Shown here piece by piece: positions 45,956 to 48,197 of a DNA stretch of 64,000 nucleotides (its first letter is position 1; each line of letters starts with the position of its first letter). Location of the stretch: positions 31,369 to 95,368 of the forward strand of contig JBFFSH010000001.1 of the NCBI GenBank assembly GCA_041572575.1, in the 5' to 3' direction. The translations under genes and the position numbers were made by a program. Under the pieces are notes generated by a model. It worked only from the letters and a program-made list of their open reading frames with translations, ran no database searches and had not been told where the DNA came from. This DNA comes from Thermodesulfobacteriota bacterium (GTDB lineage: Bacteria > Desulfobacterota_D > UBA1144 > Nemesobacterales > N074bin48).

Positions 45956-46074
45956 TTGCTTGTATAAGTTTTATTAATTTTGGATTAAATTATATTTTTG
46001 TTGCTAAGAAATATGTATTTATGTAATATCTAAGACTAATTTAGTTAAATACATTCAGGAGGCACTCCTACACA

Positions 46075-47034
46075 ATGATTACTGACAATCCTTATGTAGC
46101 TTTAAAAGAAGAGATGGACAACCTTGTGGTCGGGCATGAAGATGTAAAGATGTCCTTACTTCTTGGAATAATATCAAGAGAACATATTTATATCGAGGGT
46201 CCTCCGGGAACAGCCAAGACCATGCTCTCAGAAATTATTTCAAGCGCTGCCCAGCTACAGTTTTTCTTTTATCAGCTTCATAGAGATACCAGGCTATCCG
46301 AAATAATAGGAGATTTGGTAATATCAAAAGAAAACACTGAAGAAGGCGAAGAAATAATTAAACAAAAAATTGTAAAGGGCGGCATATTAACCGCTGAAAT
46401 CTGTCTTCTAGATGATATATCAAGAGCACCGGGAGAATCACTGAATGTACTGCTTCGTATATTAAATGAAAGAAAATTTTTCAATGAGGATATTCCCCTT
46501 CTAACAGCAATAGCTACAAGTAACCCTACAGCCGATGAATATTACAATGAACCCCTCGATCCTGCTAACCTTGACAGATTTATCCTGCAGATAAACGCAA
46601 AGGGGCTTTCATACGGAAGAAAATGGGATGAAATATCTGAAGTAATTAAGCTATATTCAAAAGACTCAGACAAGCGCGAGGTGCCCGAAAGAGTCACAAG
46701 AAAAATGCTGGATACGTATTATAAGAAACTAAACTCTGTAAAGATTCCTGTAGAGGTACAGAATCTGCTTAAGAGTTTTGTAATGATATTAATTGACAAA
46801 TACGGTTTAAACGAAACCAATTCACTCATATCTGACAGGACTTTTTTCGTAAAATCCTTAAAGATTTTAAAATCACATGCTCTGCTCCATGATAGAAAAA
46901 GCTGCACCCCTGAAGACCTGAGAGCCCTTAGATATATGACTGCTTTCAGAGTTCCTGAAGAAATTCATGCAATGATCGACCAGATTATTGATGAGGTGAT
47001 TAATCAAAAAAAAAAGCCGAAGAAGAGCAAATAG
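46075..47034 (+). CDS. MoxR/RavA-type AAA+ ATPase (short, unshifted product)
   Basis: Walker A GPPGTAKT, Walker B LLDD, LLRILNER, ATSN, LDRF, SDR; ends QKKKPKKSK* just past the A10 run. Confidence 0.88.
   Translation: MITDNPYVALKEEMDNLVVGHEDVKMSLLLGIISREHIYIEGPPGTAKTMLSEIISSAAQLQFFFYQLHRDTRLSEIIGDLVISKENTEEGEEIIKQKIVKGGILTAEICLLDDISRAPGESLNVLLRILNERKFFNEDIPLLTAIATSNPTADEYYNEPLDPANLDRFILQINAKGLSYGRKWDEISEVIKLYSKDSDKREVPERVTRKMLDTYYKKLNSVKIPVEVQNLLKSFVMILIDKYGLNETNSLISDRTFFVKSLKILKSHALLHDRKSCTPEDLRALRYMTAFRVPEEIHAMIDQIIDEVINQKKKPKKSK
46993..47016 (+). other. Candidate programmed -1 frameshift / transcriptional slippage site
   Basis: GAGGTG (46993-46998), 11 nt, A_AAA_AAG (47010-47016) inside A10 (47006-47015); -1 frame opens after TAA 47001-47003. 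Confidence 0.65.
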
Positions 47035-48197
47035 CTAATACTAATCAGGAAGCAAACTTTGGAAATGACGACTCTAGAGATGCTGAAGAAGACAGAGAAC
47101 AGATTGCTCCAGATGAAGCAGAGGAGCATACAGACGATCAGCTTCATGAAGCCAAAAAGACCTTTTTTCAGGCGCTAAAAGAACTTAAGGACAATATAGA
47201 GCAGGACCCCGGATTAATCCCTCCACCTGAAGAAAAAACCAAGAGCGACCCCGATGGCAGACCAGCCGACAGTGGTGAGAAAAATGAAGACGATGAAGAA
47301 GTACGCTCACCCGAGGTCATTTATCCTAGCAAGTCAGAGTCCCCGGGAGATGAAGATGAATACTGGGTAGGTGGCAAGAAAAACCTAAGTACTGCCGATA
47401 ACATAAAAATGATAATGAAGGTTTTAGAAGGAAACTTTCAAAGAAGCTTAGCTCTACAGGCTGTCCATCCGGGTGGTTCTCCAAGAAAGTGGAAGAGAAT
47501 GACCACATTTGATGAAATGGAAGATATCGATCCATTTGAGGCAGTATTTTGGTCATTATATACCTCACCCAGTCTTCCCAGGGTTCATAGAAGAGAAAAA
47601 GAGGTTATGGGCGGCGAGATAGCAATCCTAAGAGACGTAAGCACCTCAATGATGGGAGTGTATAGTGAATGGTCATCATCAGTTGTAAAGGGAGTAATTC
47701 AGCTTGCAAGGTCAAAAAACATGAGGGTTGGTTATATTGAATTCAACCATAAATCATTCAAGCATGAAAAAAACGGCAATTTCTTTACCAGGGACTACAA
47801 CTGGATGATTGAAAGCGCTTCAAATACAGACTGCTCTGGAAACACAAACTACGAAGATGCACTTAAGGATGCTCTTGATGAATTTAAAGGTAAGGGGCTT
47901 AGAAACAAACATATTCTTTTCATAACAGACGGCATACCTACATCAGGGGACTGTGAAGTAATAAAAGAAAGAGAAAGGGCAAAAAAACTTGGCGTATGTA
48001 TTCACTCTATATTTATCGGCGCAAAAAACTTTCCAAGAATTCTGGAAAAAATTTCGGAGGAAACCCAGGGTGCACAGTTTATAGCGTCAAAGAGAGCCGA
48101 TGGAATTATAAGAATCGAGAGAAAGGACAAGAACTTTACAATGCCTGTAATCGAAAAGGCACACGTAGATCCGTTTGCAAGGGCTTTTAAAAGCTAG
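47004..48197 (+). CDS. -1 frame continuation: acidic/Pro-rich linker + von Willebrand A domain
   Basis: No stop from 47004 to the TAG at 48195-48197; 131 codons of acidic linker before first ATG (47409, no SD); MIDAS DVSTS, GNTNY, ITDG. Confidence 0.8.
   Translation, partial: SKKKAEEEQIANTNQEANFGNDDSRDAEEDREQIAPDEAEEHTDDQLHEAKKTFFQALKELKDNIEQDPGLIPPPEEKTKSDPDGRPADSGEKNEDDEEVRSPEVIYPSKSESPGDEDEYWVGGKKNLSTADNIKMIMKVLEGNFQRSLALQAVHPGGSPRKWKRMTTFDEMEDIDPFEAVFWSLYTSPSLPRVHRREKEVMGGEIAILRDVSTSMMGVYSEWSSSVVKGVIQLARSKNMRVGYIEFNHKSFKHEKNGNFFTRDYNWMIESASNTDCSGNTNYEDALKDALDEFKGKGLRNKHILFITDGIPTSGDCEVIKERERAKKLGVCIHSIFIGAKNFPRILEKISEETQGAQFIASKRADGIIRIERKDKNFTMPVIEKAHVDPFARAFKS

Follow-up and report, generated by a model that had tools for sequence, protein, structure and literature searches.

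Introduction

Conserved recoding is rare in non-mobile bacterial genes, and PMC5009743 names prfB, dnaX, chlD and a few more. For dnaX of Thermus thermophilus, the same source ties slippage to a run of nine, stops in both other frames and two lysine tRNAs, and poly-A cassettes from chelatase genes showed 63% (A11), 40% (A9) and 10% (A7) shifting in Escherichia coli (PMC3711429, Table S2). For AAA+ ATPases with a vWA partner, it is described that one NorD binds per NorQ hexamer (PMC9976466) and that the vWA domain of CobST engages the ring pore (bioRxiv 10.64898/2026.10.09.757910). Here, we describe a gene in a window of 64,000 nucleotides (nt), meaning the whole stretch of DNA that was analysed (Thermodesulfobacteriota bacterium, assembly GCA_041572575.1, contig JBFFSH010000001.1, positions 31,369 to 95,368), in which a MoxR/RavA-type AAA+ ATPase and a vWA domain are encoded in two frames that meet at a run of ten A (A10).

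Comparative evidence strongly supports the proposal of the original prediction that one locus specifies a short AAA protein and a long AAA-linker-vWA protein, both of them predicted products; that two products arise from one gene is very probable on these sequence grounds. In our proposal, a single gene, interrupted at a conserved A10 on which RNA polymerase would slip, specifies a MoxR/RavA-type AAA+ ATPase that has a vWA adaptor tethered to it. Unslipped mRNA would be translated into a 319-residue ATPase, and mRNA with one extra A into a 707-residue ATPase-linker-vWA protein. To this reading as a whole (short and long ATPase made from one gene by slippage) we assign a probability of roughly 0.6.

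Two overlapping frames meet at an A10 run

The AAA frame (46075..47034, + strand) encodes the MoxR/RavA-type AAA+ ATPase of 319 residues with the C-terminus KKKPKKSK. Its tail reads AAT CAA AAA AAA AAG CCG AAG AAG AGC AAA TAG, and the stop of the short product (TAG, 47032..47034) lies 16 nt past the A10 homopolymer at 47006..47015, the proposed recoding site. The -1 frame is closed upstream by a TAA at 47001..47003 and then stays open over 397 codons (47004..48197), which confines the frame change to 47004-47034; the resulting 31-nt overlap contains the A10. A TAA of the third (+1) frame follows at 47036..47038, 20 nt past the run, and a transcript in that frame would give a short ATPase as well. 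By arithmetic, one added A yields a fusion of 707 residues. A Shine-Dalgarno-like GAGGTG on the same strand (46993..46998, read as Glu-Val codons, -6.9 kcal/mol) precedes A_AAA_AAG (47010-47016) by 11 nt and is genuine here, although not conserved.

Downstream of the run, the -1 frame encodes an acidic, Pro-containing linker (47016..47408, + strand) that lies 5' of any ATG, GTG or TTG and includes a conserved amphipathic helix, EAKKTFFQALKELKDNI (47148..47198), corresponding to residues 353-377 in the model of an in-frame relative. The first ATG, GTG or TTG of this frame is found at 47409, 131 codons past the A10, and has no Shine-Dalgarno pairing (+0.3 kcal/mol). The linker peptide AEEEQIANTNQEANFGNDDSR exemplifies the -1 frame, and KPKKSK the C-terminus of the short form. 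The vWA domain follows at 47616..48080, with the MIDAS (metal ion-dependent adhesion site) motif DVSTS at 47634-47648 together with the conserved T and TDG. Stop, open frame, overlap and spacing are thus as originally claimed, and the intact MIDAS is present.

The A run is conserved throughout Ca. Dadabacteria

Of 120 genomes compared from the phylum, Ca. Dadabacteria, 117 contain the vWA half, and these include the second order's small genomes (0.8-1.1 Mb) without exception (19/19). For the AAA half, 59/61 genomes had a close orthologue, as a single copy in each. The junction was read in 115 of the 117; G049, with the halves on different contigs, and G116, with the AAA half off the contig end, were left out. 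All 115 junctions carry an A9-A12 run at the same place, over a GC range of 0.28-0.64, and the run starts 59-64 nt past the same conserved motif (measured in 114). No second run of A9 or longer was found within these 115 genes. With the AAA frame as reference, 94 junctions place the vWA at -1, 17 keep it in frame and four have it at +1. Each of the +1 cases is one A shorter than most of its kin, and one of them is an error-ridden assembly; G072, which shows several stops, was counted as +1.

It is as protein, read in the -1 frame, that the linker evolves. After dropping three of the 94 -1 loci, the linkers showed -1-frame stops in 0/91 and stops in both other frames in 91/91, and substitutions fell mostly on third positions (53670 vs 15041 and 9948). 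The first possible start codon in the linker lies anywhere from codon 4 to codon 131 across loci; the linker therefore does not open a gene with initiation of its own, and on the basis of this wandering start together with -1-frame coding, internal initiation in the linker was rejected. Furthermore, both frames that do not lead to the long product are closed within 60 nt past the run in 97% of 30 Dadabacteria genera, compared with 41-62% at other places of the same genes. The original prediction had asked whether frame break and signals recur in relatives: the A run does in all junctions read and the frame break in most, and A_AAA_AAG and the Shine-Dalgarno element are not conserved. The conserved element is an A9-A12 homopolymer, in any phase and with either polarity.

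The run is real and rare in this genome

Contigs from six RNA-labelled and two DNA runs were examined at the A10. It was present without gap in contigs from 4/4 runs of the first set, two of which resemble a single data set, possibly the source, and also in contigs of 2/4 metatranscriptome runs, the two that bridge the site. In runs X15 and X16, cover across genes is flat and the material may be DNA, and X19 and X20 lack cover of the site. The A10 reading at 47006-47015 is thus borne out in contigs of all six runs bridging the site; no indel at the A10 was seen in the RNA-labelled and DNA runs at the level of contigs, which drop rare variants.

Such runs are uncommon in this organism. Among 1611 mechanically called open reading frames (ORFs), only two runs of A10 or longer were observed, the one at 47006-47015 included, vs about 44 in synonymous shuffles. 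The other A10 ORF is L232:184-1233 (contig C68), which also has two A8 runs. As a side observation, the assembly contains two different 16S rRNA 3' ends (contigs C91 and C100), and one of these contigs may be a contaminant.

A MoxR-type ATPase and an intact vWA domain

Profile searches of the AAA half gave scores above cut-off for PF20030 (75.9 bits), PF07728 (69.3), PF07726 (47.2) and PF17868 (30.3), describing a MoxR-type module with the RavA-type lid PF17868. RavA proper was rejected: the model NF010054 scored 65.2 bits against a cut-off of 681, the alignment to RavA stops at RavA residue 285, and both the length of about 500 residues and the C-terminal extension of RavA are absent. The models for ChlI, ChlD and cobaltochelatase (TIGR02030/02031/02442) gave no match to the AAA half (P0001) at E<=0.01, PF01078 remained below cut-off (17.8 bits), and AAA_lid_2 is absent. 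The fused relative P0003 reached only 21 bits with the cobaltochelatase model, on which true chlD-like genes from the same order score 370-440, and BLASTP of the AAA half against true chlD-like proteins returned E values of 0.30 and 0.22. Membership in ChlD was accordingly discarded.

An AlphaFold model was considered for P0003, a natural in-frame relative that is 80% identical over the AAA part (mean predicted local distance difference test score 72.5, predicted template modelling score 0.47). It shows the AAA part and the vWA domain joined by a disordered linker that has a helix at its centre, and at this template modelling score it gives no fixed AAA-vWA arrangement. The best fold match was MoxR 2r44 (Z 29.0, root-mean-square deviation 3.3, 297 aligned), followed by RavA 3nbx (Z 27.1, 2.8, 288 aligned), compared with Z 22.3 for BchI. 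Profile hidden Markov model scores, fold matches and BLASTP therefore agree with the original assignment to MoxR/RavA rather than ChlI.

Within 46075..47034, an alignment to RavA and AAA+ nomenclature served to name the motifs Walker A (GPPGTAKT), Walker B (LLDD), sensor I (N), arginine finger (DRF) and sensor II (SDR). The Walker B motif is LLDD here vs FLDE/LADE in RavA and 2r44, which leaves it without the catalytic glutamate. D113 (codons D112-D113, 46408-46413) is invariant in alignment A2, and most of the family members displayed have DD, whether of the short or the long form. In the -1 frame, Pfam VWA matches were obtained, and the MIDAS residues D-x-S-x-S, T and TDG are invariant across 61 homologues. 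Close to where the vWA domain ends, five of six copies from genus g6 (L053-L055, L057, L058) show an insertion of about 45 residues.

Fused and two-gene relatives outside the phylum

Fused homologues of about 640 residues bear the names Ca. Entotheonellaceae, Tectomicrobia and Abyssobacteria, and at least three lysines at the junction were present in 114/120 long proteins among the matches listed. Of 80 metagenome loci, 18 had no readable junction at first, one of which (L192) was read later. Among 15 readable Tectomicrobia-like junctions, 14 have A10-A11 and stay in frame, and one has A12 and is +1, although these genes use 103 AAA vs 117 AAG codons for lysine. In the 14 in-frame loci, the +1-frame stop lies 0-1 nt and the -1-frame stop 7-17 nt past the run. 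The distant loci L210 and L215 are -1, with A9 and A10, and outside the run, lysine codons of the L215 gene are AAG in 17 cases and AAA in two. The run is retained by the in-frame relatives in Dadabacteria (17/17) and among the Tectomicrobia-like loci (14/14).

All six run-less sister loci with enough flanking sequence (L192, L194, L195, L198, L209, L212) have a two-gene layout: a divergent AAA-linker-vWA gene, whose AAA part is 32-40% identical to the reference, comes first, and directly behind it lies a short AAA gene that is intact (55-59%). No run of A8 or longer was found in these six loci. The two-gene loci are the best indirect evidence that short and long forms are both wanted. In a quick tree, the long and short copies of the two-gene loci group with a support of 84 and with long-branch warnings, so that this sequence-based grouping is only suggestive. 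The two-gene loci lie mostly on high-GC metagenome contigs, and about 25 similar degenerate proteins of 500-720 residues were observed among distant homologues.

Other members of the family lack the lysines. Stand-alone short forms of this kind come from genomes named SAR324 and Lambdaproteobacteria, and P0245, P0250, P0255 and P0259-P0264 are fused homologues of 700-930 residues without a lysine run. One run-less fused cluster stems from protist transcriptomes, and several of the run-less fused homologues have N-terminal extensions that resemble, by eye, mitochondrial presequences. L219 looks intron-split.

Proposed polymerase slippage and its rivals

The original prediction had singled out A_AAA_AAG with an upstream Shine-Dalgarno element, signals of the E. 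coli dnaX type, which also includes a 3' hairpin. These signals are not conserved. A_AAA_AAG is found in 45/115 junctions, and in the 29 of 30 genera covered by the test, anti-Shine-Dalgarno pairing of the upstream window was in the top decile in four and the downstream fold reached z<-2 in five; both elements were thus rejected as conserved stimulators. The sole same-genus relative has A11 followed by C, no GAGG and no A_AAA_AAG. The absence of a clear 3' stimulatory hairpin at this locus had been correctly noted (z +0.5).

Slippage would be indicated by a conserved run of at least nine, by near stops in the non-long frames and by a genome that avoids such runs, and all three were found. Across the 1611 ORFs, A9 was observed 13 times vs 86 expected; each of the three phases shows this depletion (0.12-0.23 of expected), as does T9 (0.03). 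In-phase A_AAA_AAG occurs at expectation (304 vs 297, 1.02). Three-lysine stretches are written AAA AAA AAA in only 6/261 cases, though AAA makes up 68% of lysine codons. According to the cited part of PMC1088944, depletion of runs is a sign that slippage occurs in a genome. tRNA-Lys(CUU) is encoded in this genome and was found in 30/30 best loci scanned from 40 matching genomes. Varied phase and polarity, non-conserved dnaX signals, avoidance of A9 and longer runs and the presence of tRNA-Lys(CUU) together place RNA-polymerase slippage first. We consider it fairly probable that polymerase slippage is the main route, to which ribosomes slipping on this run may add.

Several observations weigh against this proposal, and some of them favour a rival, towards which the original prediction leaned, in which it is chiefly ribosomes, shifting -1 on A_AAA_AAA or A_AAA_AAG in the manner of E. 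coli dnaX, that make the same two products. The A9 and longer runs in the AAA frame all also hold the ribosomal slippery heptamer A_AAA_AAA, and the dominant -1 polarity (94/115) is what -1 ribosomal shifting leads one to expect. At this locus, a heptamer and a well-spaced Shine-Dalgarno-like element are both present, the in-frame genes of G009, G005 and G011 meet a TGA 1 nt past the run after a -1 shift, and PMC9227772, in the part cited, calls the signal of frameshifted chlD translational. Ribosomes would be content with A7, yet all junctions keep at least nine; the stimulators just discussed are not conserved, A_AAA_AAG is not avoided in the genome, tRNA-Lys(CUU) is present, and the nearest stop in Tectomicrobia-like loci is that of the +1 frame. 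We therefore regard ribosomal shifting as the main route as possible though rather unlikely. Further points against polymerase slippage are that depletion of A9 and longer runs could come from DNA-polymerase slippage instead, that the RNA contigs bridging the site all read A10 (contigs drop rare variants), and that kin are not independent, so that the genome counts show conservation and not a p-value. None of the 27 distant long representatives displayed, protists included, has three lysines at the junction, and P0060 is fused without a lysine run; the long form can thus exist without the run, and the two-gene evidence may not hold for the whole family. Finally, judged from its sequence, ATPase activity of a protein with DD in Walker B is not assured.

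DNA slippage could alternatively make the run a phase-variable switch, with subpopulations producing only the short or only the long protein. A one-A difference flips the frame between close kin (G013 vs G041/G047; G092 vs other members of g16; G111, G012, G095; L152), and Tectomicrobia- and Abyssobacteria-like proteins include short forms that end just past a lysine run. These one-A outliers may be assembly errors, however, and run length is near-fixed within clades, with A10 in 36/37 genomes of family f8 and 17/18 of f9; the contigs of this organism showed no DNA variant, and the gene encodes a core protein of the cytoplasm that is retained by genomes of roughly 1 Mb, which together make a switch improbable. 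That AAA and vWA are two separately initiated genes, their overlap and A run being incidental, would agree with MoxR ATPases usually having separately encoded vWA partners (PMC9976466 and PMC3893208, in the parts cited) and with the ATG or TTG found in the linker of many relatives. We consider this very improbable, given that no start codon lies 5' of the conserved linker helix here, that the start position is not conserved, that in-frame fusions occur in 17 genomes and 120 listed database proteins, and that the run is universal. The least credible rival, which the data refute, is that a normal fused gene was misassembled at the homopolymer or that the gene is a recent pseudogene. Homopolymers are prone to error and fused in-frame relatives do exist, but A10 was read in all six runs with contigs bridging the site, the same -1 break recurs in 94 genomes from seven families, many single-contig genomes among them, and the downstream frame is under purifying selection.

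Predicted role of a mixed ring

The short and long products are predicted to co-assemble into a ring with sub-stoichiometric vWA, and this mixed ring would remodel or metallate a client protein. The tethered vWA may grip the client through its MIDAS, with the ring built mostly of short subunits. By analogy with NorQD and CobST, we deem co-assembly likely. As to the client, nothing conserved was found on the same strand in the neighbourhood; convergent mltG and proB recur in most Dadabacteria loci, and the upstream genes vary. A promoter and terminator scan gave results at chance level. Retention of the gene in genomes of about 1 Mb suggests a core role.

More tentatively, and with somewhat less than even confidence, we envisage a DD-Walker-B branch of MoxR that needs a mixed ring and has solved this need by short-default slippage, by long-default slippage or by a gene duplication in which the tethered ATPase decayed. 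In that case, the poly-A signal would have an origin independent of chlD, be older than the Dadabacteria/Tectomicrobia split and serve a core function even in marine genomes of 0.8-1.1 Mb.

Two further features flank the gene. Upstream, its own Shine-Dalgarno sequence AGGAGG (46057-46062) can pair with CTCCT just 3' of it in a short hairpin (46056-46070, listed on the - strand), which could damp initiation of the AAA gene. Downstream, the stop of the vWA frame overlaps that of the convergent YceG/MltG gene by four bases (48194-48197).

Comparison with known systems

A link to cobalamin was considered and rejected. The genes cobN/chlH were found neither in this genome (96% complete) nor in 95/101 genomes of the order; the six with scores above cut-off all belong to genus g6, and all four checked of these six cobN carriers have a separate chlD-like gene. 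This true chlD-like gene lies between cbiD and a cobalamin adenosyltransferase gene (L279:3896, L280:4057, L281:3803, L282:3782). In the g6 genomes G012, G006, G031 and G022, the chlD-like gene itself has A8-A10 at the end of its AAA part and is split in two of them and fused in two, so that these genomes contain cobN and two unrelated poly-A AAA/vWA genes.

A literature search on MoxR/vWA frameshifting and on frameshifting in Dadabacteria retrieved no description of the present case; Antonov 2020 and supplement file 1 of PMC3711429, which lay outside the search, may list related genes. Our findings add a case of near-universal recoding for a whole phylum, streamlined ocean bacteria included, in an AAA+ family distinct from the chelatases, where most Dadabacteria genomes are annotated with two genes and a truncated vWA. 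The natural series of A9-A12 runs in three phases and both polarities, together with two-gene relatives, offers material to separate polymerase from ribosome slippage and opens the question why AAA+/vWA motors need mixed short and long subunits.

The closest likeness is to frameshifted chlD, in which an AAA-linker-vWA gene is broken by poly-A at the AAA/linker boundary and each gene gives a short and a long subunit (PMC3711429, PMC9227772); according to the cited part of the latter, in-frame and two-gene versions exist in relatives as well, and some chlD carriers lack the large chelatase subunit. By sequence, however, the ATPase described here belongs to another AAA+ family, and it has no conserved 3' stem-loop. 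With dnaX of T. thermophilus and with two-ORF dnaX genes carrying A10, the locus shares a run of at least nine, the closing of both alternative frames by stops, two lysine tRNAs in the organism and, as a prediction here, short and long subunits in one AAA+ ring (PMC5009743, PMC3711429). The in-frame relatives with near stops have the layout of T. thermophilus dnaX as PMC5009743 describes it. The clamp loader, in contrast, is an unrelated AAA+ clade, and in Dadabacteria both polarities occur in one phylum and slippage is inferred. The MoxR fold and a MIDAS-bearing vWA partner are shared with RavA-ViaA, NorQ-NorD, CbbQ-CbbO and CobS-CobT, whereas here the tethered vWA is carried by a complete ATPase copy and not encoded alone; moreover, the C-terminal 200 residues of RavA are missing, Walker B is DD, and no client gene lies nearby. 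Overall, this is a known recoding strategy in a different AAA+/vWA family, phylum-wide, with both polarities and with two-gene substitutes.

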